From NCBI GenBank assembly GCA_001779195.1, contig MFJL01000014.1, forward strand, positions 9,522 to 73,521: a stretch of 64,000 nucleotides of DNA, in the 5' to 3' direction. The notes beneath the pieces were generated by a model. That model made no database searches. It was given only the letters and a program-made list of their open reading frames with translations, and was not told the DNA's origin. Source of the stretch: Candidatus Gottesmanbacteria bacterium RIFCSPHIGHO2_02_FULL_39_11 (GTDB lineage Bacteria > Patescibacteriota > Microgenomatia > 2-02-FULL-39-11). Positions 25,049 to 64,000 of the stretch are shown piece after piece (the stretch's first letter is position 1; each line of letters opens with the position of its first letter). Position numbers and translations under genes: made by a program.

Positions 25049-26131
25049 TTAAACGAGATTTTCATTTTCAGAGTCCGCAAGGTTTTCGACAAGCTTTTTT
25101 ATCTTAGGAACTGAGTTTTTATTGCATACCAGAACCACATCATGGGTATTAATAACAATATACCCATCCAGATCAATTGCAACTACCATTTGGTCAGTAT
25201 AGTTATACACAAGATCATCCTCACAATCCGTCAGAAGTACTTTTCCCCGCGTCACATTTTGGTTTGGAGAAGTCTGCAGAGCCTCTTTTAAGGCCTCCCA
25301 CGCACCTACATCGCTCCATCCTAAATCTTCTGAAAGAACAACAGCGTTTTGTGAATTAATTTTTTCAAGAATGGCGTTATCAAATGAGATTTTCTTAAGA
25401 GTTGGATAAATCTCCGCAAGAACTTTCTGGTAGTTATCAGTACCTACGCTTTCATATATCTTTTTAAGACCGAGAAACATTTCCGGCTGATGCGTCTGAA
25501 ATAGCTTCCAGATAAATGAGGGGGTAGTTACAAAATATCCCAGATTCCATGCATGATTTCCGCTTTTGAAATACTTTTCCGCATCAACCGGGTTTGGACG
25601 GTACGAAAAATTTTGAAATGAGTGAAAATTGAATCCGTTTATTTTAAATTCTGCGGCTCCGTACTCAATCCACCCCAGATTTTGGCTTGCAAACCGGGGA
25701 GACTGACTGATAAATATAATTTTGTCCGGATTTTGTTTTATGTATTCCTCCGAAACTTTCAGAATATTTTTAAATAGGTCGTTTTTCTTAATGAGGTGAT
25801 CGCTCCATAAAATTACCATCGGAGTTTTGGGGTCTTTTTTTAAGAGATTAGCAATTACTAAACCAACCGCCGGACCAACATCCCGCATGGCGGGCTCTCC
25901 GATGACGTTTTTGGGAGGAAGACTGGAAAGCTGAGAAGTAACCATGGACAGGTACCTCTCCCCGGTACCGATATAAATATCTTCCCACTTAAAATCAGGA
26001 AGAAGTCTCTCAACGGCAAGCTGGAGAGTTGATTTATCTCCAATCACCTTTTCAAATTGCTTAGGTGAATGGCGCCTTGAGAGAGGCCACAAACGGGTCC
26101 CTACCCCTCCCGCAAAAATAACTGCTTTCAT
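25049..26131 (-). CDS. manC: Mannose-1-phosphate guanylyltransferase (ManC/GMP-like nucleotidyltransferase)
   Basis: 360 aa with the N-terminus MKAVIFAGGVGTRLWPLSRRHSPKQF. Confidence 0.8.
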   Translation of the reverse strand: MKAVIFAGGVGTRLWPLSRRHSPKQFEKVIGDKSTLQLAVERLLPDFKWEDIYIGTGERYLSMVTSQLSSLPPKNVIGEPAMRDVGPAVGLVIANLLKKDPKTPMVILWSDHLIKKNDLFKNILKVSEEYIKQNPDKIIFISQSPRFASQNLGWIEYGAAEFKINGFNFHSFQNFSYRPNPVDAEKYFKSGNHAWNLGYFVTTPSFIWKLFQTHQPEMFLGLKKIYESVGTDNYQKVLAEIYPTLKKISFDNAILEKINSQNAVVLSEDLGWSDVGAWEALKEALQTSPNQNVTRGKVLLTDCEDDLVYNYTDQMVVAIDLDGYIVINTHDVVLVCNKNSVPKIKKLVENLADSENENLV

Positions 26132-27312: not shown

Positions 27313-28449
27313 TTAACTTCCTGCAATCTGCTGGTAAATTTTAAGGGTTTGATGTGCGGTTTTTTTAAAACTGAATCTGTCAATATTTTTTTTAGCTTGA
27401 ATTACTCTTTTTTTATATTCCTCATCCTTCAGACTTAAAGCATTTTTTAATACCTGGGCCATGCTTTCCTTTTTACTTGGATCGAAATAGAGTAAATCAC
27501 CCTTCCAAATTTCGCGAAATACAGGAATGTCTGAAACAACGGGCAAAACACCACAGGAAAGCGCCTCAAATGTAGGAAGTCCGAATCCTTCCATAAGAGA
27601 AGGAAAAACCAAAAGCTTAGCATATTTATAAAGACTTAATAATTGAGAATCATTTGCAAGACCGTAAAAAATTACAGAATCCTGTAAAGATAATTTTTGT
27701 GCAAAGTGAGAAAGCCTTGGATAAAAAAAAGAGTCATCACCTGCAAGTACCAGCTTAATTTTTTTATTTTTAATAAGAAGTTTGAATGCTTCCAAAAGTT
27801 TTTCTAAATTTTTATGAGGATAGGCATTTCCGACATATAAGATATAGGGCATGGAGAAAATAGGTTTGACATTTTTTTGTGAGGAGACTAATGATTTAAA
27901 ATGCTCATCAAGAGCATCATAAGTAACCTCAATTTTGGATGGATTGACTCCGTAATGATCCATAACCTCTTTTTTTGTAGTTTCAGAGATAGTAGTAATA
28001 AAACTTGCATTTCTGATTCCCTGAGAAAGAGAGACTTGGTATCCAAATCTTTTAAGCCGGTACAAAGGATACGCAAGTGTACTTGCCCGCCCGGTATTAA
28101 AATGATCCAAAATAAGGTCATGAATTGTCAAAAGATATCTCCCGCGATAAAAAATAGGCACGTTAAAATAAGGAAAATGAGCAACTGTTACTTTATCTTT
28201 TTTTAAAACGCTTGGAATAACTATCTGTTCTTTAACTCCGTGCCAGGGAAGGTCAACAAGACGTTTAACAAACTGAGATGAAGGAGGAACAAATTCTTCA
28301 AATTCCTTTTTCCGAAGATATATGTAATATTCATTACCTGAAGGAATTTTAGATAATTCCAGTATCAGGTTTCTGATATATCTTCCCACTCCCGTTTGAT
28401 AATAAAGTCTCGAGTCAATTCCGATTCTCATTCCTCTATTATAGTTCAC
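27313..28449 (-). CDS. Glycosyltransferase family 4 (GT-B)
   Basis: 378 aa with the E-x7-E motif MEGFGLPTFEALSCGVLPVVSD. Confidence 0.8.
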   Translation of the reverse strand: MNYNRGMRIGIDSRLYYQTGVGRYIRNLILELSKIPSGNEYYIYLRKKEFEEFVPPSSQFVKRLVDLPWHGVKEQIVIPSVLKKDKVTVAHFPYFNVPIFYRGRYLLTIHDLILDHFNTGRASTLAYPLYRLKRFGYQVSLSQGIRNASFITTISETTKKEVMDHYGVNPSKIEVTYDALDEHFKSLVSSQKNVKPIFSMPYILYVGNAYPHKNLEKLLEAFKLLIKNKKIKLVLAGDDSFFYPRLSHFAQKLSLQDSVIFYGLANDSQLLSLYKYAKLLVFPSLMEGFGLPTFEALSCGVLPVVSDIPVFREIWKGDLLYFDPSKKESMAQVLKNALSLKDEEYKKRVIQAKKNIDRFSFKKTAHQTLKIYQQIAGS

Positions 28450-29702
28450 TTCAGCATATGATCAATCTGATGGGCTAATTTCATCTGGAGAGAATATATT
28501 TCAGTAAACCCGGCACTGGCGTTAACGTTAAACCGATAACCCCCTGTATTGGTAAATGAAGTATGAGCAAGTCCAAAGGGTGATTTTATCGCAACTACGC
28601 TAACGCATCCCTTAAAAAGTCTGACAGTAACTTCTCCTGTTACTTTTTTATTGACAAAGTCGCAAAAAGCATTGATTGAATCCATAATAGGATCATACCA
28701 GAGAGCTCCATAACAGAGATACCCCCATCTGATATCCATCTGAGATTTTAACTCGTTTAACCGCATGGTACAGACATATTTCTCAAGAGCCTTATGTGCT
28801 TCGATGATGACGTGAGCTGCCGGAAGTTCATATACTCCTCCGTTTTTCAACCCTATTAATCTGTCCTCGACCATATGGACAACTCCGACCCCGTGTCTTC
28901 CTGCAACAGTATTCAGGTTCATAATAAGCTTACTAAGGGAAAGATTTTTTCCGTTTAACCTAACCGGGATACCCTTTTCAAATGTAAGTTTTATCAGTTC
29001 TTCCTTATCGGGAGCATTTTTAGGAAGAGTATAGGTTGTCAAAAACTTCTCAACCGGAGAAATTATTTCAGGCTCCTCAATCTCCCCTCCTTCCCAAGTC
29101 ATGCCCCACATATTATCATCAACGCTGTATGGAAAATCTATACTCGCCGGAACCGGGATATGGTGGTTTTTGGCATATGCAATCTCTTCATTTCTGTCCA
29201 TATTCCATTCCCTGACAGGCGCAATAATTTTCATATTAGGATTAAGAGTTAAAATATATCCTTCAATTCTTACCTGATCATTTCCTTTTCCGGTACACCC
29301 ATGAGCTATGCAGTCGGCGCCTTCATGAATACCTACTTCTACTGCTTTTTTTGCCAAAATTGCCCGTCCCATGGGAGTAGAAAGATGGTAATCTCCCTGG
29401 TAGCTTGCATTTGCTTTAATTCCTTTGGATAAATACTCATTCGCAAACTCTTCTCTAACATCCAGTGTAATTGCTTTAACCGCTCCTAATTTTAGAGCTT
29501 TTTTCTTTATTTTTTCTAAATCATCATGCTGTTGACCTAAATTAAGCGTGAGAGCAATAATCTCGGGGGTGTAATGATCGGAAATCCATCTCAGCATTAC
29601 ACTCGTATCCAATCCCCCTGAATACAGAAGTAAAACTTTTTTAACGTCACTGACTTTTGCTTCGTAAGAAGCAACTTTCACATACTTAGTTTTTTCTCTC
29701 AT
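28446..29702 (-). CDS. argG: Argininosuccinate synthase
   Basis: 418 aa with the N-terminal PP-loop KVLLLYSGGLDTSVMLRWI. Confidence 0.9.
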   Translation of the reverse strand: MREKTKYVKVASYEAKVSDVKKVLLLYSGGLDTSVMLRWISDHYTPEIIALTLNLGQQHDDLEKIKKKALKLGAVKAITLDVREEFANEYLSKGIKANASYQGDYHLSTPMGRAILAKKAVEVGIHEGADCIAHGCTGKGNDQVRIEGYILTLNPNMKIIAPVREWNMDRNEEIAYAKNHHIPVPASIDFPYSVDDNMWGMTWEGGEIEEPEIISPVEKFLTTYTLPKNAPDKEELIKLTFEKGIPVRLNGKNLSLSKLIMNLNTVAGRHGVGVVHMVEDRLIGLKNGGVYELPAAHVIIEAHKALEKYVCTMRLNELKSQMDIRWGYLCYGALWYDPIMDSINAFCDFVNKKVTGEVTVRLFKGCVSVVAIKSPFGLAHTSFTNTGGYRFNVNASAGFTEIYSLQMKLAHQIDHMLK

Positions 29703-31050
29703 AAGAGACTCCCAGTTTTTTTAAAATGTTTAAATAATAGTTGTGTTTTTCTTTCCACCAAATTTTACTTTTCTGTGCATTTTTTCTCGCTTTTTTTAAC
29801 ATAAGATTTCCTGTGCCTCCCAGGTGGGTTGATAACTTTATAATTTCCGCTGGATCAAACAGAGGAAGACTACCCAAAGACTTTCCGATTTTTTTATAAG
29901 CGTCCCTAAAGGGCATCCCCTTTTTTACCAGCAAATAAGAAGCATGCACTGCAAAAATTTCAGGCGTGAAAGACTTTTTCAGCATCTGTGTATTCGGTTC
30001 AATTGAATTAATAACTAATTTGCATATGCTTAGCGCATCTTTAACCATTTCAATGCTTTTTATGAAAGGATATTTAGTCTCTGCAAAATCTCCCTGATAT
30101 CCTGAGGGCAATCCGGCAATAATTCCCGCAATACTTTGCTCAAAGGAAATAACAACATGAGTTCTGGCTCTTAAACTCTCCAGAACATCCAAATTTTTCT
30201 TTTGAGGCATGATGCTGGATCCAGTTGATAATGTTTTATCAACATTAAAAAAATTAAATTCGCTTGTTGTAAAAAGAAGAATATCGGAAGCAAACCGGGA
30301 TAGTGTCAGCATAATCTGAAGTGCTGCATGCATAACAATCAAATGAGATTTACCCCGGGAACTTCCCGCATACAAGCTGTTGCTTTGAACCCGTTTAAAT
30401 CCTAAAAGTTTTGCGGTCAATTCTCTATCCAGCACCAAGGGAACACCATAAGAAGCAGCTGATCCCAAAGGAGACTGGTCATTAATTATAAATGCGCATT
30501 TAAGCATGTTCAGATCGTCAGTCAAGCTTTCTGCAAAACTCCCCGACCACATTCCGACTGAGGAGGGCATTGCCTTCTGCATATGAGTGTATCCGGGCAT
30601 GGGAACAAGCTTATATTTATCTGCAAAATCTAAAAAAGAAGAAACTAGTCTATGGCATAAAAATGAAATCTTAAACAGGTTTTCTTTTGTAAAAAGCCTA
30701 AGATCGGTAAGTACCTGGTCGTTTCTGCTTCTGCCTGTGTGGATTTTCTTGCCTAAATCACCTAGCTTTGAGACTAAATAATTTTCAACTTTTGTATGTA
30801 CATCCTCATCGCCCAATTCAACTTTAAACTTTCTCTTTTTCTCGAGTTTTATTATCTCAATAAGAGCATGTTTCAGCTTTTTAAATTCCTCTTTTGTCAG
30901 AACATCTATTTGACAAAGCATTTGAGCATGAGAAATTGATCCTAAGACATCAGGAACAATAAGTACATTATCCAAAAGCGCTGTATCGCCGAAACAATAC
31001 GTTTCAGCCAATTTATTCTGTGAGTAGTCTTTTTGCCATAATTTTTCCAT
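29686..31050 (-). CDS. argH: Argininosuccinate lyase
   Basis: 454 aa with the fumarate-lyase signature GSSIMPQKKN, TGRSRNDQV and an ArgH-like N-terminus (KLWQKDYS...DVLGSISHAQML). Confidence 0.9.
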   Translation of the reverse strand: MEKLWQKDYSQNKLAETYCFGDTALLDNVLIVPDVLGSISHAQMLCQIDVLTKEEFKKLKHALIEIIKLEKKRKFKVELGDEDVHTKVENYLVSKLGDLGKKIHTGRSRNDQVLTDLRLFTKENLFKISFLCHRLVSSFLDFADKYKLVPMPGYTHMQKAMPSSVGMWSGSFAESLTDDLNMLKCAFIINDQSPLGSAASYGVPLVLDRELTAKLLGFKRVQSNSLYAGSSRGKSHLIVMHAALQIMLTLSRFASDILLFTTSEFNFFNVDKTLSTGSSIMPQKKNLDVLESLRARTHVVISFEQSIAGIIAGLPSGYQGDFAETKYPFIKSIEMVKDALSICKLVINSIEPNTQMLKKSFTPEIFAVHASYLLVKKGMPFRDAYKKIGKSLGSLPLFDPAEIIKLSTHLGGTGNLMLKKARKNAQKSKIWWKEKHNYYLNILKKLGVSYERKN

Positions 31051-33459: not shown

Positions 33460-36400
33460 CTATCTTTGGGGAAGATCTTTATCCGGTACTAATTGAATAA
33501 GAATATAGTTAGGCAACTCCTGAATAATTTTATATCCTTTTGTGCTTTCTTTATTCAGAGCTTCTCTCATGAGCTGCTGGGTCACATCATCATAATTTAG
33601 GGATACATAATAATCAGCTCCCTTTTTAACAAGGCTGTCAATTGGCTCGGTGAGAACAGGCCATCCCCACCGGTGGGTCTGGTATAAAAACGCGGTATCT
33701 CCATTATAGGGAGCAACCACAAGCGCTTTATCCGGAGTGTATTTTTCAACAGCCAAGCCTGCTTCAATAATTTCAGGATGATTGATATTGTAATAGTCTT
33801 TAATAAAATACCATCCGAACATCAGCATAAAAATAAAACATATCAAAACAAAGGGATAGACAAAAACCCTATTAAATATCTTTCCTGCATGATCCAGAAG
33901 AAAAACTACTCCCTTAGCGGCAAAAATACATAGAATAGGCACTATAAATATCTGATAATAATCATGCCTTACATTTCCCGTTGCAATAACAACAAGATAC
34001 AAAAGTGCTCCGAGTCCCCATATATGAAAAACCCATCCTTCCTTCGGTTTTTTAAACAGGAGTCCCAGAGAAACAAAAACAACGCCCCAGTAGCCCAGAA
34101 TAAGTCTTCCAATTCGGTCTGCAAATATCCAGTAAAACCAGGCACCTTTGAACCGAATTCCGTCTCCGTTTAAAAGCCAAGTATATGCCGGGACTCCTTC
34201 AGGGAAATTGGCAACCCATTTTCTCCATAAGAGAAGTGGAATAAGTGTCGCAAAAAGCGCAATTCCGATTGCAAGCAACGTTGAAAAAGAAAGCTTAAGT
34301 CTTCTGATAAATACATATATAACAACAGGATATAAAAAGAGTGAGATGGGCTTAATTAAAGCAGCTCCGGATGCAAAGAGAAGGGCTAAAATGCCCGTTA
34401 ATATTAATTTAAGAATGATCCTTTTTTCTCTTTTTCCCTTACTGAATAAGGCAAGATGTATGGCAAATGTATCAAAGAAATAAATCATTCCGACAGATAA
34501 AGAAGCCAAAAGGGGTTCGGGCAAAATGACACGGCTGAAAAAAATATTGTATGGAATAACCGCAAAAAATATGGCAGTTAAAACCGATTCGCGTCTTCCT
34601 AAGAATCGTCTGGCAATAAGAAAAAGAAATATAATAGAGAGCAGGCTTGCAAATATGGAAGTCAGACGGCCTGAAATTTCAATCGTGTAACCGACAAAAA
34701 TCTTGTCCGTGACAGTTGAAAAAAAGTTGTACAAAGGAAATTCTACCATCCGGTATCCGTTGGGATTGTCCTTTCCGGATGCTACATTTGAAAGGTCATG
34801 GTAGGTAGGATACAAAAGATTAATTCCGTTTCTGACAAAACTGCGCGTTACCGAGGAAGTATCTGCCTGCCTCCATGAATGCCAGTCAGCAATAGGAGAA
34901 GTGATTTTATAAAGCCTGACGAAAAAAGCTAAGCCTAAAATAACCAGAAGAATAAATAAGTCCCCTTTTATAAAATGAAGAATACGGACCCTCGTACCTA
35001 TAAAAAATTCCGAGAGATCAGGAATGGAAGGCTTATCAACAGGACCTTTATGATCTTTTTTTAGAATCATAAGAGCAGAGAGGATAATTCCGCTTATTGC
35101 CCAAAACGTAAATGCGACTTTGGATGAAACAAATACATCAATATAAACTGCATTTGCAAAAAGCCCCATTGAAAGTCCGATAAATCCTGCAAAAAGAGAG
35201 AAAAATATAGGATCCTGCGCCACTTTAAGGTTTCTCCACACCAGATACATAGCTACGATGACGGTTCCGTAAAAAGCTACAAATCCCAAGATTCCCGTCT
35301 CCCCCAAGGTTCTAAGATAATCATTGTCGGTTGATTCCGCATCGGTAAAATCAGTAACATTTTGCTTATTAAGAGTTGCGTATCCGCTCCCCAGCAGGGG
35401 ATCCCGTTTAAATCCCGCAATAGCCATAGGCCAAAGTGCATCCAGACGTATCGCGGTTGAAAGATCATATCGAAACGCGGTGTTGGAATAGGTTCTATTT
35501 GTTGGAGTTAATACAGAACTGTCTGTAGCTGTTGGAATCAAAAGAGGGACATCCTCGTATACATCGCTCGGCCGACGGAGTGAAGGAGGCATATCACTCT
35601 TTGAGGTAATCTGAGATATGATATCGGAATTATTTTCAAGAAAAAGAGCGTTTTGAGTAGGCCTTTGAGCAAGAGGAGACATAAAAAGTGACTTGATATT
35701 TCCCAGTCTTTCATCCAACTTTAACAGTTTAGTAAACCGTTCAGACAGGTCCCCAAAAGACAGCATAAGAACAATAGATAAGGTAATCACCCCTATCCAC
35801 CGTGCTACCGACCATGCAATCCCCTTCCGATATGCCCATATGAAAAACATAAAAGTCAGTCCTCCCAGATAGGCAAGAAAAGAGATTCGAGAGGCAGTAA
35901 GTATTAGAGTCCAAAAAGCTGCTCCTATAATTACAAAAACACCAGCTCGTAAGTACCACCTCTTTACTGCAAAAAATAGACTCCACAAGAGAATAAGCAC
36001 CATCATGATAAAAGCCGCAAGATCATAGTGACCTCCGAATGTTGAGAGAACCCGGGCATGTTCCGTAAGATACAAAACCCAGCCCTTAGAAAACTCCCGA
36101 TTCATAGTAGAAAAAGCCGGCCAATATAGATATTTTTGACCAAACCCATACACTGCTACACACACAACAGTAGCTAGAAGAATTCCGATTAATATTTTCA
36201 CCTGCTTGAGATTTCTAATCGACGAAAAAAGAATAAAAAACAGTGAAAAATACTCAATACGTCTGAGGTAATGAAGAACCATTTTGCCGATATGTAGAGT
36301 CTGTAAAGGAACTGTTTGGATGACAAAAACAGCCGTAATCATGGTCAAAAACCCGAAAGTAAGATAAATTAAAATTGGTTTAAACAGGGGATAGTCAGAT

Positions 36401-36603
36401 AGCTTTGTTTTTCCCCGAATGAGGTAGAAAAGCCAGAGTAAAATCGCAAAACTTACTATAAAATCCTCAATTCTTACTCGGACTATATATCCGGGAAGAG
36501 CATCTAAAAGAGGAAGCTTAGGCATAAGAGGAATAAAAGCGATCAAAAACGCCGAGAAGGCAAATAAGAGATGGCTATCCAGCCACTTCAAAAGCTTTAT
36601 CAT
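33460..36603 (-). CDS. Fusion membrane protein: N-terminal Wzy_C/O-antigen ligase-like domain plus C-terminal ArnT/PMT-like GT-C glycosyltransferase (GT39/GT83-like)
   Basis: 1047 aa with more than 20 predicted TM segments. The N-half carries the O-antigen ligase/polymerase signature ...DNDYLRTLGETGILGFVAFYG. The C-half carries an ArnT/YkcB-like first loop (HSWRQADTSSV) and GT-C topology. Confidence 0.6.
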   Translation of the reverse strand: MIKLLKWLDSHLLFAFSAFLIAFIPLMPKLPLLDALPGYIVRVRIEDFIVSFAILLWLFYLIRGKTKLSDYPLFKPILIYLTFGFLTMITAVFVIQTVPLQTLHIGKMVLHYLRRIEYFSLFFILFSSIRNLKQVKILIGILLATVVCVAVYGFGQKYLYWPAFSTMNREFSKGWVLYLTEHARVLSTFGGHYDLAAFIMMVLILLWSLFFAVKRWYLRAGVFVIIGAAFWTLILTASRISFLAYLGGLTFMFFIWAYRKGIAWSVARWIGVITLSIVLMLSFGDLSERFTKLLKLDERLGNIKSLFMSPLAQRPTQNALFLENNSDIISQITSKSDMPPSLRRPSDVYEDVPLLIPTATDSSVLTPTNRTYSNTAFRYDLSTAIRLDALWPMAIAGFKRDPLLGSGYATLNKQNVTDFTDAESTDNDYLRTLGETGILGFVAFYGTVIVAMYLVWRNLKVAQDPIFFSLFAGFIGLSMGLFANAVYIDVFVSSKVAFTFWAISGIILSALMILKKDHKGPVDKPSIPDLSEFFIGTRVRILHFIKGDLFILLVILGLAFFVRLYKITSPIADWHSWRQADTSSVTRSFVRNGINLLYPTYHDLSNVASGKDNPNGYRMVEFPLYNFFSTVTDKIFVGYTIEISGRLTSIFASLLSIIFLFLIARRFLGRRESVLTAIFFAVIPYNIFFSRVILPEPLLASLSVGMIYFFDTFAIHLALFSKGKREKRIILKLILTGILALLFASGAALIKPISLFLYPVVIYVFIRRLKLSFSTLLAIGIALFATLIPLLLWRKWVANFPEGVPAYTWLLNGDGIRFKGAWFYWIFADRIGRLILGYWGVVFVSLGLLFKKPKEGWVFHIWGLGALLYLVVIATGNVRHDYYQIFIVPILCIFAAKGVVFLLDHAGKIFNRVFVYPFVLICFIFMLMFGWYFIKDYYNINHPEIIEAGLAVEKYTPDKALVVAPYNGDTAFLYQTHRWGWPVLTEPIDSLVKKGADYYVSLNYDDVTQQLMREALNKESTKGYKIIQELPNYILIQLVPDKDLPQR

Positions 36604-53430: not shown

Positions 53431-54252
53431 TCAAAAAATCATTCTCTTTACCATTTTAACTGGCGTTAGGATTGCAGATTCAATAGTGTATACGGTTGAA
53501 CGCTTAGTATGAACATCAGAGACAAACGTGGGATGTTTTTGATTAAAAATATCAGGAATTTTAACAGTATCAGGAAACGATCTGCCCCATTCAATTTTAT
53601 ATTTATTTCTGTGAAATGTCGTTTGAATATTTGCACCGCTTGATGACCTTTTCAGGTACATCGCATGCCACAATTTACCCGTCGTAAAATAAAACAAATG
53701 CGGTGAATGATGGATAATTTCCCTGCCTGATTTATCATAATACCCCTCATAGGGATAGCTCCCTGAAACTCTGATACCGTTTATATTTTTCTTATTAATA
53801 AGCCTTACTACGATGTGCCCTTTTTTTCCAAAAAGATGATAAGGACCAACGTCTGGATTTTGAAAATGGTATATGTCTCCCAGTAAATCATATCTTCCTA
53901 CAACAATCCCTTCCAGAGTCTCTCCTTTTGTTGTTATTACATTTTTAATTTCTTCACATAAGAAACTAGGGTAGATTTCATCCCCGTCCACTACCCAAAA
54001 CCAATCAGTTGTTGTCTTATCTACCTGCTCTTCTCGTATGCGTGCTATATCTATAACATCACGGACTTCCCTTTCATAAAATTCTATTTTTTTTGAGTTA
54101 AAAGATTTAATAATTTTTATCGTATTATCTGTTGAACCGGTATCTGCAATAAAGATTCTGTCAGCATAGGGAAGAACAGATGATATGGAATACCAAATAA
54201 AACGGTCTTCATTTTTAACCATCATGTGGACGGTTAACTGATTATTTTTCAT
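53431..54252 (-). CDS. Glycosyltransferase family 2-like (GT-A)
   Basis: 273 aa with MMVKNEDRFI and ADTGSTDNT. Confidence 0.6.
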   Translation of the reverse strand: MKNNQLTVHMMVKNEDRFIWYSISSVLPYADRIFIADTGSTDNTIKIIKSFNSKKIEFYEREVRDVIDIARIREEQVDKTTTDWFWVVDGDEIYPSFLCEEIKNVITTKGETLEGIVVGRYDLLGDIYHFQNPDVGPYHLFGKKGHIVVRLINKKNINGIRVSGSYPYEGYYDKSGREIIHHSPHLFYFTTGKLWHAMYLKRSSSGANIQTTFHRNKYKIEWGRSFPDTVKIPDIFNQKHPTFVSDVHTKRSTVYTIESAILTPVKMVKRMIF

Positions 54253-55537
54253 GATGATGGCGACGTAAAGAATAAATGCTCAAATAAGAAGTTAAAAATA
54301 CGGTAGCTGCAAACGCAAGTATTAAGGATAGAGCCGGACCCATCCTTCCGTATCTGGGTATAAAAATAAGGTTTCCGACAATCACAATTATCAGTTGCAA
54401 CACACTGTTTATGGTGAGTATTTGAGGTTTTTTGACGTAATATATCGCAACCGCAACAGCGGGAATGGATGCCGTGAAAAAAATCTGGCTTACTAAGAGA
54501 AGTTGAAAAACTCCTACGGAATCCTTTGCTTTTTCTCCGAAAAGAATTGTAATAAAAGGATTCGCAATAACTATTAATACTAAAATGGTTACTATAAGAC
54601 CAAGAGTTGCTAAAATTATTTTTAATAAATAATCTTTAAATTCGTTTTTAGTAGCAATTCCCGATATCCGGGGAGCAATAACTGAAGTAAAGCTTCCGGC
54701 AAGAAGAGGATATATAGAAATCACCCGGGAGGCTGTAGCATATATTCCAGTTTCAACTGAGTTTGTAAATGCAATAAGCATCAGAGTATCGAGCCTGCTT
54801 GAAACTGCCGTCAGGGATCTGGCTATACCTAAAAATTTTGAAAATTTTAGGAGCTCCCCAAAATCCTTTGAACTGGGAGATGATTTTAAAAATCTGGTTC
54901 CGATAAATGCCAATGCTACAAAGGCGGTAAGTATCATACTGGCAATTTGTGTCCATATAACGGAAGTTAAGTTGACAAAAGACAAAAGAATAATAAGAAT
55001 CAAAAAAATAAGTCTTAGGATACTACTCAGTGCCGAAAGGACTGACGCTCCAACAAATCTTTCTTCAGCTGAAAGAATATACGAGAAAAAATTTAAGATC
55101 GTAAGTCCAAATATCCCCACCGTGATAACCCGAACAAGCGGAGTAAGAGAAGGATTATGAAAAAAATTACCTGCTAAAAAATTAGACAGAATTAAAATTA
55201 AAAAACATAATACTAAAACAATTCCTGACTGATACAAAAATGAAGTTTTTATAAACGTATTGAAACGATCACGGTTATTTTTAAGGGAAGGTAGAAAGCG
55301 AGCAAGAGAAGCCCCGATTCCTACATCAGAAACATCGCAAACCAGTATAAAGAGTGAAAAAATAGCAGAATAATATCCAAAATCCGATAGTGAGATAACC
55401 CGGTACAACACAACAGTGAAAATAAAAGCAAAAACCGCCGAAATCATATTTCCCATAAAAACCAGATAAGTATTACGGGCTGTTTTTGAAAGCAATAATT
55501 TGCGGATCAAACTGCTTGTTTTTTGATACATATTCAT
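54242..55537 (-). CDS. wzx: MOP-superfamily polysaccharide flippase (Wzx-like)
   Basis: 431 aa with 12-14 TM segments and Wzx-like spacing and size. Confidence 0.65.
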   Translation of the reverse strand: MNMYQKTSSLIRKLLLSKTARNTYLVFMGNMISAVFAFIFTVVLYRVISLSDFGYYSAIFSLFILVCDVSDVGIGASLARFLPSLKNNRDRFNTFIKTSFLYQSGIVLVLCFLILILSNFLAGNFFHNPSLTPLVRVITVGIFGLTILNFFSYILSAEERFVGASVLSALSSILRLIFLILIILLSFVNLTSVIWTQIASMILTAFVALAFIGTRFLKSSPSSKDFGELLKFSKFLGIARSLTAVSSRLDTLMLIAFTNSVETGIYATASRVISIYPLLAGSFTSVIAPRISGIATKNEFKDYLLKIILATLGLIVTILVLIVIANPFITILFGEKAKDSVGVFQLLLVSQIFFTASIPAVAVAIYYVKKPQILTINSVLQLIIVIVGNLIFIPRYGRMGPALSLILAFAATVFLTSYLSIYSLRRHHHEK

Positions 55538-57109: not shown

Positions 57110-57212
57110 ATCTATTTAGCTTTTGTTTTATATATTTTTTGATATAGTCTGCTAGATTGCATTAGCTTAAATACTATATTATAACGTCTTGACCAAGTTC
57201 AAAAGTATTATT

Positions 57213-57815
57213 ATGAAGTCAAAAACGGTAAAACTTACGTCCAAAAAGAGCTTTCTCAGCTTCTATCTCGATAACTTTACTATCAGCTTATCACATCTTG
57301 AGACAAAAAATATAGAAAAAATAATTGATCAGTTGGTACTTTTGAAAAAAAGAAAAGGGAGATTATTTTTGATAGGTATTGGGGGAAGCGCTGCCAACTG
57401 CAGTCACGCGGTTAATGACTTCAGAAAAATCGCAAAAATTGAAACCTATGCGGCCTCTGATAACATTGCGGAGCTTACTGCCCGGATAAACGATGAGGGA
57501 TGGGACGGAATATTTTCTTCTTATCTTGAGGGGAGTCATCTTTCGAAAAATGATATGGTTTTTATTCTGTCAGTAAGCGGTGGAGACCTTATAAAAAATA
57601 AAAGCATAAATATAGTTCATGCTATTTTATATGCCAAAAAAATCGGATCGACCATCCTAGCAATTGTCGGTGCGGGAGGAGGATTCACTAAAGAGTCTGC
57701 AGACTACGTAATCGAAATTAAGACTGAAAGAAATGAACTGATAATTCCCTTTGCAGAAAGCATGCAAAGTGTCATTTGGCATGCGATTGTGAATCATCCT
57801 AAACTTACAAGTTAA
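57213..57815 (+). CDS. gmhA: SIS-domain sedoheptulose-7-phosphate isomerase (GmhA-like)
   Basis: GRLFLIGIGGSAANCSHAVNDFRKI. The start is placed at the ATG at 57213 (MKSKTVKL); the track ORF begins upstream at a TTG. Confidence 0.7.
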   Translation: MKSKTVKLTSKKSFLSFYLDNFTISLSHLETKNIEKIIDQLVLLKKRKGRLFLIGIGGSAANCSHAVNDFRKIAKIETYAASDNIAELTARINDEGWDGIFSSYLEGSHLSKNDMVFILSVSGGDLIKNKSINIVHAILYAKKIGSTILAIVGAGGGFTKESADYVIEIKTERNELIIPFAESMQSVIWHAIVNHPKLTS

Positions 57816-58806
57816 TTGCCGAGTCTTTAATATAATGACTTAAACAGCTGTGGTAGTACTCCTTTGTGGCTTTAAGTCCTTCCCTTAATGATACTTCAGG
57901 ATTCCAGTTAAATTTATTTCTGAATTTCCTGTCATCAATATATACATTTCCGACTTCAATCTTTTTCCTGTCTTTCGGCCACTGCATTTTTTTTATCTTT
58001 CCGCCTACTATTCTCTCGATTGATTTGGCTATTGTATAAACAGTTGGAAAATCTGATGAGCTTACAAAATAAACCTCCCCCTTGCCCCTTTTTCCAATTG
58101 TCCTTAGGAGAGCATCAACTACATCTTCAATATATAAGACAGACCGATGCTGATTACCAGATCCGTAGAGAGGGATCGGTTTACCCGACAAAGCAAGACC
58201 GATAAAGTAGTTGATAAAACCAAACTCACTTGATGAAATGACAGCCCGGGGCCCGTATACATTTGGAAGTCGTATGGAAGTTGTATTTATTCCATATACC
58301 CGTGAATATATTTCCATATACTTCTCTCCCAGGCTTTTATGAGCTGAATATATATCGCATGGAAACTCGCAGTGCAGTTCGGTAATGGGATTAATTTTCA
58401 TTTTTCCCACCTGGGTAGATGTTGCAGTATATATGACCTGTATTTTGGGGTTATACTTCCGAACGGATTCCAACAGCACAAGTGTCCCCCGGGCATTTAT
58501 GTCTAAATCCATAAAGGGGTCTTCCATAGAACCTGGATGAGAAGTATGAGCCGCACAATGAAAAATAATATCAGTATTCGTTAGAATTTTCGCAAGCACT
58601 TTTTCGTTTCTAATATCGTGATTTAAAAAAATAACTTCTTTTTGAATGGGTTTTATATTGTATAAATTCGCTCCCGAATGAAAGTCGCAGTTGTCTAAAA
58701 TAGTGACATTAGCACCTTTTTTAAAACAAGATAAGGCTAAATTGCTTCCAATAAATCCAATACCTCCTGTAATAAGTATTTTTTTACTTTGAAACATTTT
58801 TTCCAT
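57805..58806 (-). CDS. NAD-dependent nucleotide-sugar epimerase/dehydratase (extended SDR)
   Basis: 333 aa with the Rossmann motif ILITGGIGFIGSNLA and the catalytic YSAHK. Confidence 0.8.
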   Translation of the reverse strand: MEKMFQSKKILITGGIGFIGSNLALSCFKKGANVTILDNCDFHSGANLYNIKPIQKEVIFLNHDIRNEKVLAKILTNTDIIFHCAAHTSHPGSMEDPFMDLDINARGTLVLLESVRKYNPKIQVIYTATSTQVGKMKINPITELHCEFPCDIYSAHKSLGEKYMEIYSRVYGINTTSIRLPNVYGPRAVISSSEFGFINYFIGLALSGKPIPLYGSGNQHRSVLYIEDVVDALLRTIGKRGKGEVYFVSSSDFPTVYTIAKSIERIVGGKIKKMQWPKDRKKIEVGNVYIDDRKFRNKFNWNPEVSLREGLKATKEYYHSCLSHYIKDSAINL

Positions 58807-58828: not shown

Positions 58829-60415
58829 TTACCTGATAATAGACTCATGATTCTTTTTATCCGATTTGAACCTAATAATCAAATAAATAAGAAGCATCAT
58901 GCATAAAACATACATGGTGAGATAAAAAATAAGAAAATAACCTTTGGTAAACCACGGTTTATACTGACTGGCTTCCACTAAAAAACGGCTTACCGGAAGA
59001 ATATCATAATAGGAAGAAAGAAGAGTATATAATCCGTAAATGCTGAAAATAACCGTTAGTACGGCAATCAATTTTATAAACCCTTCTTTCACCTTTTTAA
59101 ATTTTTCGGGAATCAAAGAGTTCCATCCCTTAAGAAATAAATAGGTAAGAATCGTAACCACGGGAAAATAATACCTTCCCTGTATTCCCAATTGAAACCC
59201 AGACTGATACCAGCTTAACCAGTCGAAAACAGAAATTCCGGCATAAAATATCCATGCGATCCCGATTAAAAAAATTATGCTTTGTATGTGCCTGTTTACT
59301 TGCGACCGGTTCCTTATAAGCTTAAATAAAGATAGTCCCAGTCCCACAATTGCAAGTATAAGTATGCGGTTAATTATCCGGTGAATACCTCTGGGATAGG
59401 TTACACCCAGCCATTTGTATATTCCGAAATACCATGGCAATACTTCCGTATAAGTATGAGAGAGAGTATATTCCCGGGTATATTTTAAAAGGCTTTGCAA
59501 ATTTAAATGGTTAATTATCGTTTGAATTAAAACAAACGAGCCAAAACCTATTCTATAGAAAATATATAAAAGAACGACACCAAATACCCCAAACAAACTG
59601 ATATATAACCATTTTTTTTCTGTCTTTAAATCTCTTATTGCAATAGCCAAAATCAAAATGACGGTTATCGGAATAGTTATAATAAATTGAGGTTTTGAAT
59701 AGATGCATAATAAAAGAGTGATAAATAAATTTGCCGTGTTTCCGACTGTAAAAGAATTTTTTATGATATGGACGATCCAATATATAAATATCGTAAACAG
59801 AAGATTACCCAAGGCGTCACTGTTTACTCCCACATTGGCAAAAATAAGCATAGGTTGAAATCCTACCAGTATGGGAAATATGAATTGCTCCAAATGTCTT
59901 TTTGGAAATAATAACCTTCCAAGTTTATAGCTTACTGCAATAAACATCATAAAAAGTAAAAGAGACCATATACGTACTGTAAGAACCCGAGTAAAAATAT
60001 CGGAAGTATAAAACAAACGGTATATTAAACTTCCCGGAATATAATATAAAATCGGATATCGGGATGCTTCAATGCGGACAAAGGTTGATTTATCTTTATG
60101 GGTGTTTACAGCAGAAATACTTGCCTCATGATAACCAATCAGGCTATCGGAATAAGGAATACGGTATTCCGGATGAAAAGTAAAACGGTTATTGCCGGAA
60201 TTGTCCCGGTGCGTTCCTAAGAGTACTTCTGAAGTGTATATTTCTTTTGACAAATCTAACTCTTCGCCCTCTGAGTTTCTTCCTTTTTCTGCCACAAATG
60301 CCACTTGGCCAAAGTGAGACTGTTCATCGGGAGTATGAAATATAGGAACAAGACACACCCAAATAAATGCATTTAAGAAAGCCGTAAAAAAAAATATGGT
60401 ACCAGCATTTCTCAT
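58829..60415 (-). CDS. Polytopic membrane protein, DUF2142-like (putative GT-C glycosyltransferase)
   Basis: PIFHTPDEQSHF first loop and more than 10 TM segments. The start is adjusted to MRNAGTIFFF (ATG 60413-60415), which gives an ATGA overlap with the upstream GT2; the track ORF runs to 60514. Confidence 0.45.
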   Translation of the reverse strand: MRNAGTIFFFTAFLNAFIWVCLVPIFHTPDEQSHFGQVAFVAEKGRNSEGEELDLSKEIYTSEVLLGTHRDNSGNNRFTFHPEYRIPYSDSLIGYHEASISAVNTHKDKSTFVRIEASRYPILYYIPGSLIYRLFYTSDIFTRVLTVRIWSLLLFMMFIAVSYKLGRLLFPKRHLEQFIFPILVGFQPMLIFANVGVNSDALGNLLFTIFIYWIVHIIKNSFTVGNTANLFITLLLCIYSKPQFIITIPITVILILAIAIRDLKTEKKWLYISLFGVFGVVLLYIFYRIGFGSFVLIQTIINHLNLQSLLKYTREYTLSHTYTEVLPWYFGIYKWLGVTYPRGIHRIINRILILAIVGLGLSLFKLIRNRSQVNRHIQSIIFLIGIAWIFYAGISVFDWLSWYQSGFQLGIQGRYYFPVVTILTYLFLKGWNSLIPEKFKKVKEGFIKLIAVLTVIFSIYGLYTLLSSYYDILPVSRFLVEASQYKPWFTKGYFLIFYLTMYVLCMMLLIYLIIRFKSDKKNHESIIR

Positions 60416-61374
60416 CTGATTTGCTTGATTCGTATACGGAAATGAAGTCCGTTTGCGATATAACCCAATCCGAACACAATTTTTGATAGTCTTTCTGCAA
60501 CCCAGTTCTGCCATCTTGGATAGGTAACAAAAGTAACCCCAGAGTACACAATATGAATAAACACATATCCTGCTGCTAAAAAAACTGACATAATTTGACT
60601 TAGATGGGCTTTCCTCCTATTTTGCATATCAAACCACGCGCATCCGCCTGCATAAGACCTTTGAAGAATATAGGAAAGAGTTTGCTTTTTATCAGAGACT
60701 TCATGAAAAACTGATAATTTAGGTGAGTAGAAAATTTTTGCTGTATTATTTGTATACTCGAAGAGTCGGTAGAACAAATCCGTTTCTTCATGAAGATATA
60801 AATTTTTTCCTTTCATTCCCAGCCGCTCATCAAAACCTCCTATCTCCATTAAGGTATTCTTTTTAATTATCATGTTTGAACCGGTTAACGACTCACCTTT
60901 TTTTAAATATCTTTCTTGAGAACCCAGAATTTTTTTCGACATTACTGCGTATTTCGCCTTAAACCAATCCGGCTTTTTTCCACCAGCAAAAAAAGGTTTT
61001 TCCGGACCTCCCAACGCTATTAAGGAATTTCGGTATTTGCTAATTATATACATTGCATTTGATAACCAGTTTTTAGGAATCCTTACATCATCGTCCAGAT
61101 AAGCCACATACTTTCCATGAGCATATTGGTATCCTAAGTTTCGTGAAGCAGATAATCCTTTTCGGTCATCTACAATATACTGAAACAAATTTGAAGAAAA
61201 CTCATGTTGAAATGATTTGACAACTATGGGTGTTTGATCGGTTGATCTATCGTCAATCACAACAACCTCATACCCATCTGACTTACTGGTTTGTTTCATG
61301 ATGGATTTAAGACACTCTCCAAGTAAATTTGCCCGGTTGTATGTACAGATAACAATGGAAATTTTGGGGGTCAT
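60412..61374 (-). CDS. Glycosyltransferase family 2 (GT-A)
   Basis: 320 aa with ISIVICTYNRANLLGECL and VVIDDRSTDQT. Confidence 0.8.
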   Translation of the reverse strand: MTPKISIVICTYNRANLLGECLKSIMKQTSKSDGYEVVVIDDRSTDQTPIVVKSFQHEFSSNLFQYIVDDRKGLSASRNLGYQYAHGKYVAYLDDDVRIPKNWLSNAMYIISKYRNSLIALGGPEKPFFAGGKKPDWFKAKYAVMSKKILGSQERYLKKGESLTGSNMIIKKNTLMEIGGFDERLGMKGKNLYLHEETDLFYRLFEYTNNTAKIFYSPKLSVFHEVSDKKQTLSYILQRSYAGGCAWFDMQNRRKAHLSQIMSVFLAAGYVFIHIVYSGVTFVTYPRWQNWVAERLSKIVFGLGYIANGLHFRIRIKQIR

Positions 61375-61394: not shown

Positions 61395-62438
61395 TTATCT
61401 ATAAAGCAATCTCTTTATTCTCCCTTCTAATAAATGAGGCAAACTGTTTTCATTTTTAAGAATAATTGAGCTTTTTTGACCGGAATTATTGTCTTCTTTC
61501 CATTTTTTAATATACTCGGAAAATAAAGGGAAAAACTGATACTTTTCCAAAATAAGTTCTCGTGCTTTACATATTGTTTTCTGATTACGCTTCCACAGAT
61601 TACTATGAATAATCCGATTAATGGTATCAGGACATTTGGGATCTTCGATATCTATTTTAATATAGGAGGACTCAGGAAAATAATTTGAAATATTAGTGCA
61701 GCCATAATATATGGGCATAGTATAGGACAGATAAGCATCTGCAAGCTTTTCACTCCAGTAGTCAGGTCCGGCAAAGTTCTCAACAACCAGACTATATCGA
61801 TAAGGAGAGAGTGCTTCCCATTTATCCTGTGCGACTGATGAATACCCTTCGGCATATAAAGCTTTTTTCAACTCTTCTTTCTCCTGTTGTGTCTTAACAT
61901 GCAGTTTTCTTTCATAATAATTTAAAGTTGCAGTAATATCGCATGCGGACTTGTGTGAAATATTTTTTAAAAAATTTAATCTTTTTTTATGTCCCTCAAA
62001 AATATTTTTTTTGCTTGTAACCCAACAAAGTAATTTATTTTTTTTCGGCATCGGTTCTTTTCTCAAAAAATCATAAGACCGGTTTATATGCCAAGGCAGT
62101 CCTGTCTGGGTATGAATATACCTTTCCCCAACCAAGTGAGAATCAGTTGTGTACACACGGGAATAAATGCCGCAAGGTTTATAGGTATGCCTGAAAAATT
62201 CGTTCGGGGGCTCCTGATGAATTAACCATAAGTTTTTTTCATTGCAATAAACTCCCGCATCCCGGGTTATTGAGTTTAAAACAAGTACATAATCACAATT
62301 ATCTCCCTCGTCAAATGTAAATTGGATTCCACCCCATACTCCCTTTCCCTGTGGTGTTTGGTTAAGCATGTCAGGCCAATCCCAGCTTTTAATTATTCTT
62401 ATGACTATCTCCTTATTTTTCTTTATATCTGTATCCAT
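61395..62438 (-). CDS. GT10 alpha-1,3/4-fucosyltransferase (FutA/FucT-like)
   Basis: YRYSLVVENFAGPDYWSEKLADAYLSYTMPIYYG closely parallels the Helicobacter FucT motif YKFNLCFENSQGYGYVTEKIIDAYFSHTIPIYWG. Confidence 0.75.
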   Translation of the reverse strand: MDTDIKKNKEIVIRIIKSWDWPDMLNQTPQGKGVWGGIQFTFDEGDNCDYVLVLNSITRDAGVYCNEKNLWLIHQEPPNEFFRHTYKPCGIYSRVYTTDSHLVGERYIHTQTGLPWHINRSYDFLRKEPMPKKNKLLCWVTSKKNIFEGHKKRLNFLKNISHKSACDITATLNYYERKLHVKTQQEKEELKKALYAEGYSSVAQDKWEALSPYRYSLVVENFAGPDYWSEKLADAYLSYTMPIYYGCTNISNYFPESSYIKIDIEDPKCPDTINRIIHSNLWKRNQKTICKARELILEKYQFFPLFSEYIKKWKEDNNSGQKSSIILKNENSLPHLLEGRIKRLLYR

Positions 62439-63298
62439 GATGATGGAAATAAATCTTTAGTTGAAACTTTTAGTTTATAAAACCAATTTCTCGGAGCAAT
62501 CACTATAGATGATGCGTTTGGATTAAGCCACCCTACCCACCAACTAAAGGTACTATTTGTAAGAATATGATGCTTGCACAGACTTCCCAGAATCAGATCC
62601 TCTTCAACCCGATCCGGATAATTTATGTCAACATACGTAGCCGGATAAGACAAAATAATATTATTTTTTACCCATTCAATATCATCTGAGAAAAGAAAAA
62701 AATGAGGGTTCTTAACTCTCTTTCGAATAACTGAAACAGCTTGGTGTATATAGTCTGCCCCTATAAAACCGTGTCTTCGGCTGATTATGTGATTGGTAAC
62801 ATAATCTCCCCGTCTAATATTTATTGAAATGGAATTCACATCTGAAATATACTCTCGAAGTTCTTTACTCTCAGAAGATAACTTCTCGTTTAACCGAAGT
62901 TCCCGTCTAAGAATATTTGCAATACTTAAAAAGTATTTTTCACTCTGAAAGTAACCGATAAGATATGAATTATCGCGAATCCTCTCAAAGCTCCGATCGT
63001 AGTGAAAACTTTTTTCATAATATATATTCGAAAATAACGGAAACAGTATATGGTGAATATACGGGTGGTAATCCTGGGGAAAAAATCTCGAAAACTTTAA
63101 ATATTTTTTAAGATCACTCCCCTTTGATATTTCAGCCTGGATATTGAATTTATCCAGAAGAAATATCCGGTATGTCTTTCTCTGAAGTTCCGTAATATCA
63201 AGTTTTAACGAGGTCCCGAATTTTATCGACAGCATCCTTCCCGCCGCATACTGAAACAGTTGATTTCCCAGTCCACCGGTTATTCGGATAATAATCAT
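62423..63298 (-). CDS. GT11 alpha-1,2-fucosyltransferase (FutC/WbsJ-like)
   Basis: GT11 motifs ITGGLGNQLFQYAAG, INIRRGDY, FLFSDDIEW and NSTFSWWVGWL. Confidence 0.8.
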   Translation of the reverse strand: MIIIRITGGLGNQLFQYAAGRMLSIKFGTSLKLDITELQRKTYRIFLLDKFNIQAEISKGSDLKKYLKFSRFFPQDYHPYIHHILFPLFSNIYYEKSFHYDRSFERIRDNSYLIGYFQSEKYFLSIANILRRELRLNEKLSSESKELREYISDVNSISINIRRGDYVTNHIISRRHGFIGADYIHQAVSVIRKRVKNPHFFLFSDDIEWVKNNIILSYPATYVDINYPDRVEEDLILGSLCKHHILTNSTFSWWVGWLNPNASSIVIAPRNWFYKLKVSTKDLFPSSWIQI

Positions 63299-64000
63299 AT
63301 AGAATTATTTATGTGATTCCTATAGCTTGTGAGTCTTTGTGACACCTCTCTGTCAAAAATAGATTCATCATCTATGTTTTCATATATTTTCTTCCCAAAA
63401 ATTACGTTTTTAACCTTTCCCAGAGAAAGAAAATACTGATTATTCCACAGTTTTGAATCTGTTTTTTCTTCCATTTCTCTTTCTTTTCTGAAATTTATAA
63501 GCGTCGTGAGAGGCTTTGATTCAAGTTTCCCTATTATATCGGCTAATCCGTATATAGGATCCGAATTATGAAAAAAATTTTTCCTTGCCCAAATATTTAA
63601 GACAGAGTAATTTCCTGATTTAGATGCTGAGGCACTGATGAGTTTAAATTCTGTGTACGTTTTTATTGTATCTATATATTTGTACCAGTCCGCCCAAAGC
63701 TCAGAGGGCAATCTATATGGCTGAAGCATATAAATGGATTTTTTTGCAAGTGCTGCTTCAATAAGTGTTGTACTAAATGAAGAAACTATAATATCACTTC
63801 CCAAAATCCACTCACGAACTGTATATGTTTTCAGAACATGAATTCTGTCACTTATATTGGACTGCATCATGTGAAGCTTCTCCTTAAAATAGGATAGACT
63901 AAATGTAGGACGGGGACGAAGAATTACTTCGACATCATCTGCACCTTCTCTGACAATCCGGTCCAGCCACCTGATAACCTCTTCAAAACTTTTCTCACAA
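63295..64000 (-). CDS. TagB/TagF-like polyol-phosphate (glycerophospho)transferase or capsule phosphotransferase (C-terminal part; gene continues beyond the window end)
   Basis: The reading frame stays open upstream of the annotated Met to position 64000. The RPRP...SDIIVSSFSTTLIEAALAKKSIYMLQPY pattern resembles the TagF catalytic region. Confidence 0.35.
   Translation of the reverse strand, partial: CEKSFEEVIRWLDRIVREGADDVEVILRPRPTFSLSYFKEKLHMMQSNISDRIHVLKTYTVREWILGSDIIVSSFSTTLIEAALAKKSIYMLQPYRLPSELWADWYKYIDTIKTYTEFKLISASASKSGNYSVLNIWARKNFFHNSDPIYGLADIIGKLESKPLTTLINFRKEREMEEKTDSKLWNNQYFLSLGKVKNVIFGKKIYENIDDESIFDREVSQRLTSYRNHINNSI

Follow-up and report, generated by a model that had tools for sequence, protein, structure and literature searches.

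What does a groundwater member of the candidate phyla radiation (CPR) build with a GT11-family and a GT10-like glycosyltransferase encoded side by side? The pair lies in a 64,000-nucleotide stretch of Candidatus Gottesmanbacteria bacterium RIFCSPHIGHO2_02_FULL_39_11 (contig MFJL01000014.1, positions 9,522 to 73,521), referred to here in its full length as the window. An initial annotation of this stretch had interpreted the two genes as a Lewis-antigen-type capping pair standing at the end of a glycan island. Our analysis supports the family assignments, but Lewis-antigen mimicry does not hold up as a claim. The interpretation we favour, with confidence somewhat better than even, is that the genes encode two cytoplasmic, inverting fucosyltransferases of the GT-B fold (GT11 and GT10) that belong to a Wzx/Wzy-type surface-glycan operon. 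The results gain further interest from a widespread, uncharacterised GT10-like/GT2 module, and from a glycan locus, conserved in Gottesmanbacteria, in which predicted fucosylation is found together with an unusual nonulosonate pathway. The pair and its junction are as follows.

62423..63298, minus strand: GT11-family glycosyltransferase gene (291 amino acids; OGG16302.1 / A3D77_02485), a predicted guanosine diphosphate (GDP)-L-fucose-dependent alpha-fucosyltransferase.
61395..62438, minus strand: GT10-like glycosyltransferase gene of a remote bacterial subfamily (347 amino acids; OGG16301.1 / A3D77_02480), a predicted alpha-fucosyltransferase.
62423..62438, minus strand: 16 nt in which the GT11 gene, at its 3' end, overlaps the beginning of the GT10-like gene, read from the junction sequence, with the same calls in public records.

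Both open reading frames (ORFs) were confirmed in the ORF list, and the peptides quoted in the initial annotation (LVVENFAGPDYWSEKLADAYLSYTMPIYYG, GGLGNQLFQYA, IRRGDY and NSTFSWW) were all found in the translations. The gene order was not as first described: with both genes on the minus strand, transcription reaches the upstream GT11 gene before the GT10-like gene, which had previously been called the first. The GT11 gene ends in ...TCA TGG ATA CAG ATA TAA with the GT10-like ATG inside this sequence (tcATGGATACAGATATAAag), which bears out the 16-bp overlap, and no other in-frame GT10-like start was seen near the point where homologues begin. Identical gene calls with an identical overlap occur on independent public assemblies; the GT10-like protein is carried by 11 contigs, on four of which a 100%-identical GT11 neighbour is recorded. 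Translational coupling, as originally proposed, is plausible in this genome, but the arrangement is not kept in relatives, where the genes are separated by a gap of 2-3 nt or, in one sister genome, by a methyltransferase gene. The family annotation of the proteins is not itself new, as their UniProt entries carry the names 'Glycosyl transferase family 11' (OGG16302.1) and 'Fucosyltransferase C-terminal domain-containing protein' (OGG16301.1).

Are these proteins members of the families to which they were assigned? For the upstream protein, assignment to GT11 on sequence criteria is unambiguous. Pfam PF01531 matched residues 6-290 at 122.5 bits (E = 2.7e-35), spanning profile positions 6-296 of 298, and alignment to Helicobacter pylori FutC, a comparison proposed in the initial annotation, gave 28% identity end to end (E = 4e-38). 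The motif residues of GGLGNQ.FQY, RRGD and NS(S/T)FSWW were invariant across 45 homologues. The HxRRxD motif, whose first Arg is critical (PMC4202792), reads NIRRGD (in full NIRRGDY) in this protein, with both Arg and the Asp retained and His replaced by Asn; among 120 homologues this column holds His in ~100 and Asn in ~5. Single-sequence and profile searches of the PDB with this protein returned only spurious matches (E > 0.3), so fold comparison was used instead. AlphaFold2 models of both proteins were of high confidence. For the GT11 model the top six fold matches were without exception GDP-fucose transferases, placing the predicted fold in the alpha-1,2 / alpha-1,6 / O-fucosyltransferase superfamily. 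The description of this gene as an alpha-1,2-fucosyltransferase is sound as to family but not as to linkage: Helicobacter hepaticus Hh0072 is a GT11 enzyme that forms an alpha-1,3 linkage (PMC4202792), and alpha-1,2 cannot therefore be assumed from family membership.

The downstream protein is, judged by the same kind of evidence, a genuine but remote member of GT10. It matched the GT10 C-terminal domain profile PF00852 at 34.6 bits (E = 2e-8; gathering cut-off 23.9) over profile positions 2-110 of 182 only, and phmmer aligned it to H. pylori FucT in the PDB over 59 residues (E = 2e-8). A profile built from 48 subfamily sequences retrieved FUT9 (2e-13), H. pylori FucT (HpFucT; 1e-12), Arabidopsis FucTA and mango FUT13, and no non-GT10 family in the PDB at E <= 0.1. 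The alpha-1,3-fucosyltransferase motif F/Y-x-L-x-F/V-E-N-...-Y-x-T/S-E-K is present as YSLVVENFAGPDYWSEKLADAY. In the profile-PDB alignment, R153, N221, E230 and K231 correspond to FUT9 R202, N246, E255 and K256, residues that bind the diphosphate and donor (2025 review, PMC12717137). E76, R153, E220, E230, K231 and D234 do not vary across the 48 homologues, in which the donor-site residues, N221 included, are invariant or close to it, and a wider set of 156 homologues (E <= 0.001) shares 20 invariant columns that include the catalytic-site residues. E76 belongs to a motif of the N-terminal domain, QEPPNE, that is similar to the E-S-P of FUT9 and HpFucT and falls outside all sequence alignments to known GT10 enzymes; it is a plausible counterpart of catalytic Glu137 of FUT9 (Glu95 in HpFucT). 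The modelled fold is GT-B, closest to GT10 structures.

The earlier label of an alpha-1,3-fucosyltransferase of family GT10 holds for the family, given the PF00852 match, the retained donor residues and the finding that GT10 fucosyltransferases are the sole significant PDB sequence matches, but acceptor and linkage are not readable. The proposed comparison with the H. pylori GT10 enzyme likewise gave a match, but one confined to the donor domain, where HMMER alignments to known GT10 enzymes span about 60-125 residues; based on structure, the protein is 16-18% identical to FUT9 and to H. pylori FucT. At that identity, limited to the donor domain, acceptor specificity and linkage cannot be carried over.

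A low and partial PF00852 score, together with an NCBIfam scan in which neither protein matched any model at E <= 0.01 and so gained no curated functional name, could be taken to mean that the ORFs are decayed or non-functional, or that the GT10 match arose by chance. Against this stand the intact ORFs, the same proteins on several independent assemblies, the invariant columns in the 156 homologues, the confident models and the profile-PDB match at E = 2e-13. The conservation data effectively refute decay or chance, to which we assign next to no probability.

Do the two genes form a functional unit? Their distribution points elsewhere, to the GT10-like gene and its downstream neighbour.

60412..61374, minus strand: GT2 glycosyltransferase gene (PF00535, 98.4 bits), 20 nt downstream of the GT10-like gene, its product with one C-terminal hydrophobic segment.

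In a scan of one genome per species, the GT10-like subfamily, with proteins of 310-350 amino acids, was present in at least 560 species genomes, the phyla including Chloroflexota, Desulfobacterota, Cyanobacteria, Planctomycetota, Verrucomicrobiota, Proteobacteria, Bacteroidota and Patescibacteria. Neighbourhoods were counted in the best 80 GT10-like loci (L013-L092), 66 of which could be scored for a downstream GT2. A GT11 gene lay within 10 kb of the GT10-like gene in 4/80, all of Gottesmanbacteria type (CPR). A same-strand homologue of the window's GT2 gene stood directly downstream in 40/66 loci from many phyla (14 at >= 100 bits), and in an Acidobacteriota metagenome-assembled genome (MAG) GT10-like and GT2 domains are fused in a 619-amino-acid ORF (L020:3610-5469; PF00852 and PF00535). 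Because the GT2 association is so much more frequent than that with GT11, and is reinforced by a fusion, the conserved functional unit appears to be GT10-like plus GT2, with GT11 a lineage-specific addition. These data suggest that the GT10-like and GT2 genes constitute a previously unrecognised two-enzyme module. Within Gottesmanbacteria-type genomes, the GT11 and GT10-like genes were syntenic in at least four others, at 43-59% protein identity.

Two further observations were made on the subfamily. A Leptolyngbya MAG encodes a 540-amino-acid ORF with a GT10-like domain followed by C-terminal tetratricopeptide repeats (L033:9995-11617). Contigs labelled 'uncultured Gammaproteobacteria' (L014/L010, CAZJBV010000002.1; L013, CAZFNL010000137.1) bear Gottesmanbacteria-type GT11, GT10-like, GT2 and DUF2142-like genes, with the whole module in unchanged order in L010/L014; these MAGs may be mislabelled as to taxon.

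Where would the two enzymes act? The window opens with a dcw/mur cell-wall cluster (~1-20 kb), and a glycan island extends from ~22 kb to the window end, comprising DUF4012, Bac_transf, ManC-like, many GT2 and GT4, Wzy_C, and DUF2079-, PMT_2- and DUF2142-like membrane proteins, along with a Wzx-type flippase. The pair does not close this island, as had been supposed: it stands in its middle, at the point where the window stops, and public contigs of the same organism show that the operon runs at least 9 kb further. The features that bear on the pathway are as follows.

63295..64000 (cut by the window end), minus strand: 3' part of a gene for a 438-amino-acid protein, a candidate nonulosonic-acid transferase resembling the TIGR04396 / BFO_1060 family.
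58829..60415, minus strand: polytopic membrane protein resembling DUF2142 (528 amino acids in the public call, ~10 hydrophobic segments), a candidate GT-C-type transferase of the periplasmic face.
57805..58806, minus strand: extended short-chain dehydrogenase/reductase (SDR) resembling nucleotide-sugar epimerases (Pfam Epimerase, 153.7 bits).
54242..55537, minus strand: Wzx-type flippase (Polysacc_synt; Pfam matches on the identical public gene), in the same co-directional string.
33460..36603, minus strand: 1047-amino-acid Wzy_C protein, a candidate polymerase, ligase or O-oligosaccharyltransferase.
25049..26131, minus strand: ManC-like mannose-1-phosphate guanylyltransferase (Pfam NTP_transferase and ManC_GMP_beta-helix; TIGR01479, 225 bits).
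24365..25024, minus strand: initiating phosphoglycosyltransferase (Bac_transf).

From the methyltransferase gene through the SDR at 57805 all genes run in one direction and either overlap or stand apart by <= 31 nt; the stop of the 438-amino-acid gene overlaps the GT11 start by 4 nt. A scan of 56.5-64 kb found no terminator-like sites between or beside the two fucosyltransferase genes, and two minus-strand sites fell inside the GT2 and membrane-protein coding sequences; promoter and terminator counts in this interval were not above those of shuffled sequence, and the scan was otherwise uninformative. The full-length 438-amino-acid protein (L001:7828-9144) scored 80.6 bits against TIGR04396 and 72.4 bits against NF046086, both below the cut-offs. 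Beyond the window, upstream of the GT11 gene, it is accompanied by genes for an FkbM methyltransferase, a transketolase-like protein, a PseF-like cytidine monophosphate (CMP)-transferase and an aldehyde dehydrogenase, and further on by a KdsC / Kdn-9-P-phosphatase-like protein, an SDR, a NeuB-like synthase and another GT2. Since the one contig of the organism with the retrievable NeuB variant is 1.8 kb long, the region upstream of NeuB was viewed in a sister genome. There, with about 31 kb surrounding the module covered, it holds further glycosyltransferase, methyltransferase and carbamoyltransferase genes and neither gmd nor fcl.

Neither the GT11 nor the GT10-like protein has a hydrophobic segment, which fits cytoplasmic action on a lipid-linked intermediate. 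Family membership, fold, retained donor-site residues, operon context and the distribution of partner genes are observed; that fucose is the donor, which linkages and acceptors are involved and in what order the enzymes act belong to a scheme that we infer. Both proteins would be soluble, cytoplasmic, inverting GT-B enzymes encoded inside a long co-directional Wzx/Wzy-type operon, and each would most likely transfer L-fucose from GDP-beta-L-fucose, in alpha linkage, onto a growing undecaprenyl-diphosphate-linked oligosaccharide, which would then be flipped and joined to a surface polymer or protein. The GT2 enzyme would make a beta-linked sugar, and the GT10-like enzyme would fucosylate its product. 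In Gottesmanbacteria this GT10-like/GT2 unit would have acquired two additions, GT11 and a CMP-nonulosonic-acid pathway, the latter together with a putative transferase of its own. The resulting glycan probably contains both fucose and nonulosonate, and the final structure probably carries methyl groups as well.

Several features of the surrounding locus deserve separate mention. The nonulosonic-acid-type pathway upstream of the pair is conserved in L001:1-9144 (same organism), L010-L012, L093 and L095, and includes unusual extras: a 647-amino-acid transketolase/DXS-like protein, an aldehyde dehydrogenase, a classical SDR and FkbM methyltransferase(s). At 1047 amino acids the Wzy_C protein is unusually large, and its role bears on the glycan attachment target. 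The mechanically called ORF of the DUF2142-like gene spans 58829..60514 (561 amino acids), while public calls give 528 amino acids with a start 4 nt inside the GT2 gene; the window protein had no Pfam match of its own, and relatives at 40-47% identity carry PF09913 DUF2142. Argininosuccinate lyase- and synthase-like genes (Lyase_1, Arginosuc_synth; 28446..31050) lie inside the island among glycosyltransferase genes. A plus-strand gene for a GmhA-like SIS-domain protein (57189..58806 region) converges on the epimerase-like SDR gene with an 11-nt 3' overlap; it scored ~51 bits against sedoheptulose-7-P isomerase models, far below the cut-offs, and neither gene was found at the corresponding position in syntenic relatives.

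Is the transferred sugar fucose? The tblastn searches with Escherichia coli Gmd and Fcl agreed with the earlier statement that gmd and fcl are not in the window, and found no orthologue in flanking loci (L001-L012) or syntenic relatives (L010-L012, L093-L095). The SDR at 57805..58806 was considered as a hidden Gmd or Fcl and rejected: it is 24% identical to each of the E. coli proteins, scores 28 bits against TIGR01472 (gmd) and 34.7 bits against the Fcl model, and, since its closest PDB relative is a uridine diphosphate (UDP)-glucose 4-epimerase (4zrm, E = 1e-41), is neither. The only GDP-sugar enzyme found was the ManC-like protein, whose TIGR01479 match covers the N-terminal guanylyltransferase part only (cut-off 373); it could supply GDP-mannose, from which GDP-fucose is made. 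In 4/80 subfamily loci, by contrast, the Gmd and Fcl queries did retrieve genuine gmd and fcl, <= 9 kb upstream of the GT10-like gene. NCBIfam models confirmed this in two loci, with gmd at 535 and 580 bits and fcl at 508 bits in L060 (cut-off 500) and 304 in L075, where nothing but a short folD-like ORF stands between gmd-fcl and the GT10-like gene. This proximity lends mild support to fucose as the sugar of the GT10-like subfamily.

A number of results nonetheless weigh against GDP-fucose-dependent transfer by both enzymes. Searches of the window, of the adjoining 9 kb and, in relatives, of ~30 kb surrounding the module turned up neither gmd nor fcl nor any fkp-like gene, so that the supply of GDP-fucose is hypothetical, and the 4/80 co-occurrence has no control frequency and may equal that of any polysaccharide locus. 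All characterised enzymes are very remote from the GT10-like protein; a Pfam scan gave no match to the GT10 N-terminal domain, and the donor-contacting Asn195 of FUT9, in its (V/I)SN motif, is replaced by K143. This column holds Asn in 30/48 family members and in none of an 11-member subclade, to which the window protein belongs (at least two members being annotated Gottesmanbacteria) and which is defined by the loss together with a 26-amino-acid helical insertion at residues 171-196 of the donor domain. Our literature searches found no experimental study of any subfamily member, and those on CPR/Gottesmanbacteria fucosylation, hormogonium-polysaccharide fucosyltransferase and GT10+GT11 clusters yielded nothing specific to this subfamily.

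Since gmd and fcl were not seen, the donor of the GT10-like enzyme might be another GDP-sugar. More broadly, it may use a different GDP-6-deoxy or nucleotide sugar, or fucosylate a different acceptor such as protein, in the manner of FUT10/FUT11 (POFUT3/4), and the GT11 enzyme may use a fucose analogue. E. coli O55 WbgN, a GT11-like colitosyltransferase, counts in favour of this, as do the silence of ~80 kb of genome and of the relatives' loci on gmd and fcl, the altered donor domain of the subclade and the N-terminal (acceptor) domain, most of whose residues cannot be aligned to known GT10 enzymes. GT10 moreover includes protein O-fucosyltransferases (PMC11949838). We nevertheless regard a different donor or acceptor as unlikely. 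The donor of all characterised GT10 and GT11 enzymes is GDP-fucose or a closely similar GDP-L-galacto sugar, the residues that bind diphosphate and sugar are kept, some subfamily members adjoin gmd-fcl, and absence from 80 kb says little for a genome of ~1 Mb. Transfer of fucose from GDP-fucose remains the reading that we prefer.

Would the fucosylated product be Lewis-like? The proposal would have the pair act as FutA and FutC do, adding alpha-1,3-fucose to N-acetylglucosamine and alpha-1,2-fucose to galactose on terminal N-acetyllactosamine (LacNAc) for attachment to a host or partner. In H. pylori itself, futA, futB and futC are dispersed rather than paired, which counts against the analogy. 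What the two systems share are the same two CAZy families, with the alpha-1,3-fucosyltransferase motif and GT11 motifs present, and the adjoining GT2 could in principle make a beta-linked acceptor sugar; the organism is a CPR bacterium, and cultivated CPR members are episymbionts (PMC11623550). Lewis x/y capping itself, however, rests only on the family names. The LacNAc acceptor is hypothetical; the specificities of the island's GT2 and GT4 enzymes are not readable from sequence. Similarity of the GT10-like protein to HpFucT and FUT9 is confined to the donor domain, with acceptor-domain similarity undetectable by sequence, and Hh0072 illustrates that GT11 enzymes are not all alpha-1,2 (PMC4202792). 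Adjacency of GT11 and GT10-like genes, seen in 4/80 loci and interrupted by a methyltransferase gene in the sister genome, is not a conserved unit, so the description of the pair as the same as that of H. pylori is not sustained. Terminal capping is likewise an assumption, as the genes lie in mid-operon directly after the putative nonulosonic-acid transferase, and GDP-fucose genes were not found in the window, flanks or relatives' loci. Taken together, these results make a Lewis-antigen-type capping pair very improbable.

What would the favoured reading, of two cytoplasmic fucosyltransferases in a surface-glycan operon, mean if true? A CPR bacterium would place fucose, and probably nonulosonic acid too, in a surface glycan encoded by an island of > 50 kb, a large investment for a genome of ~1 Mb and one relevant to its presentation to partner cells and phages. 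In a bolder extension, which we consider a long shot though less so than Lewis-type capping, the GT10-like/GT2 module would build a specific fucosylated disaccharide, and the derived subclade, combined with GT11, methyltransferases and the Kdn-like pathway, would produce a 'sialyl-Lewis-like' fucose-plus-nonulosonate epitope on an ultrasmall, probably episymbiotic bacterium. The GT10-like subfamily is also present in cultured strains of Geotalea (sp. SG265), Azospirillum (sp. SYSU D00513), Nodularia (N. harveyana UHCC-0300) and Anabaena (UHCC strains); knowing what one such member does would reveal the function of the entire group, and fucosyltransferases of new specificity, of use in making glycans, could emerge from it.

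How does the locus compare with known systems? With the GT10 enzymes FUT9 (PDB 8d0o) and H. pylori FucT/FutA (2nzw, 5zoi), the GT10-like protein shares the GT-B fold, the C-terminal donor motif (Y)SLVVEN...YWSEKLADAY...PIYYG, and the GDP-fucose-holding Arg, Asn and Glu-Lys (R153, N221, E230-K231); its invariant N-terminal Glu (E76) is a candidate catalytic base and, as in bacterial GT10 enzymes, there is no membrane anchor. It differs from FUT9 and HpFucT in its 16-18% identity, the missing Pfam N-terminal domain match, the Lys in place of Asn195 and the 26-amino-acid insertion, from HpFucT in lacking the heptad repeats and amphipathic tail, and from known GT10 enzymes generally in belonging to a separate subfamily of 310-350 amino acids whose genes usually adjoin a GT2. 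The window's GT11 protein compares as follows with its known relatives, FutC and E. coli WbsJ, WbwK, WbiQ and WbgL: it is homologous over its full length (28% to FutC), similar in size (~290-300 amino acids), and shares the three motifs, the absence of a DxD motif and location in a polysaccharide cluster. It departs from them in having NIRRGD for HxRRxD and in its CPR host, and CPR bacteria are expected to be without lipopolysaccharide (LPS).

The H. pylori Lewis system, in which FutA/FutB and FutC act on LacNAc repeats of the LPS O-chain, resembles the present locus in having the same two families in one genome. Neither a LacNAc backbone nor LPS, phase-variable repeats or the GDP-fucose pathway is in evidence here, and the genes are instead adjacent in an operon with a nonulosonic-acid pathway, methyltransferases and GT-C-like membrane proteins. 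A broader resemblance is seen with the protein O-glycosylation loci of Bacteroidota (Tannerella forsythia, B. fragilis), which combine fucose with terminal nonulosonic acid. Their fucosyltransferase family was considered as a true relative and rejected because it is GT2-like, not GT10 or GT11 (PMC8698959), and the BFO_1060/TIGR04396 matches of our locus fall below cut-offs. What our locus has in common with them is one or more predicted fucosyltransferases alongside a pathway to CMP-nonulosonate and a BFO_1060-like putative nonulosonate transferase, together with methyltransferases, a flippase and a protein of Wzy_C type.

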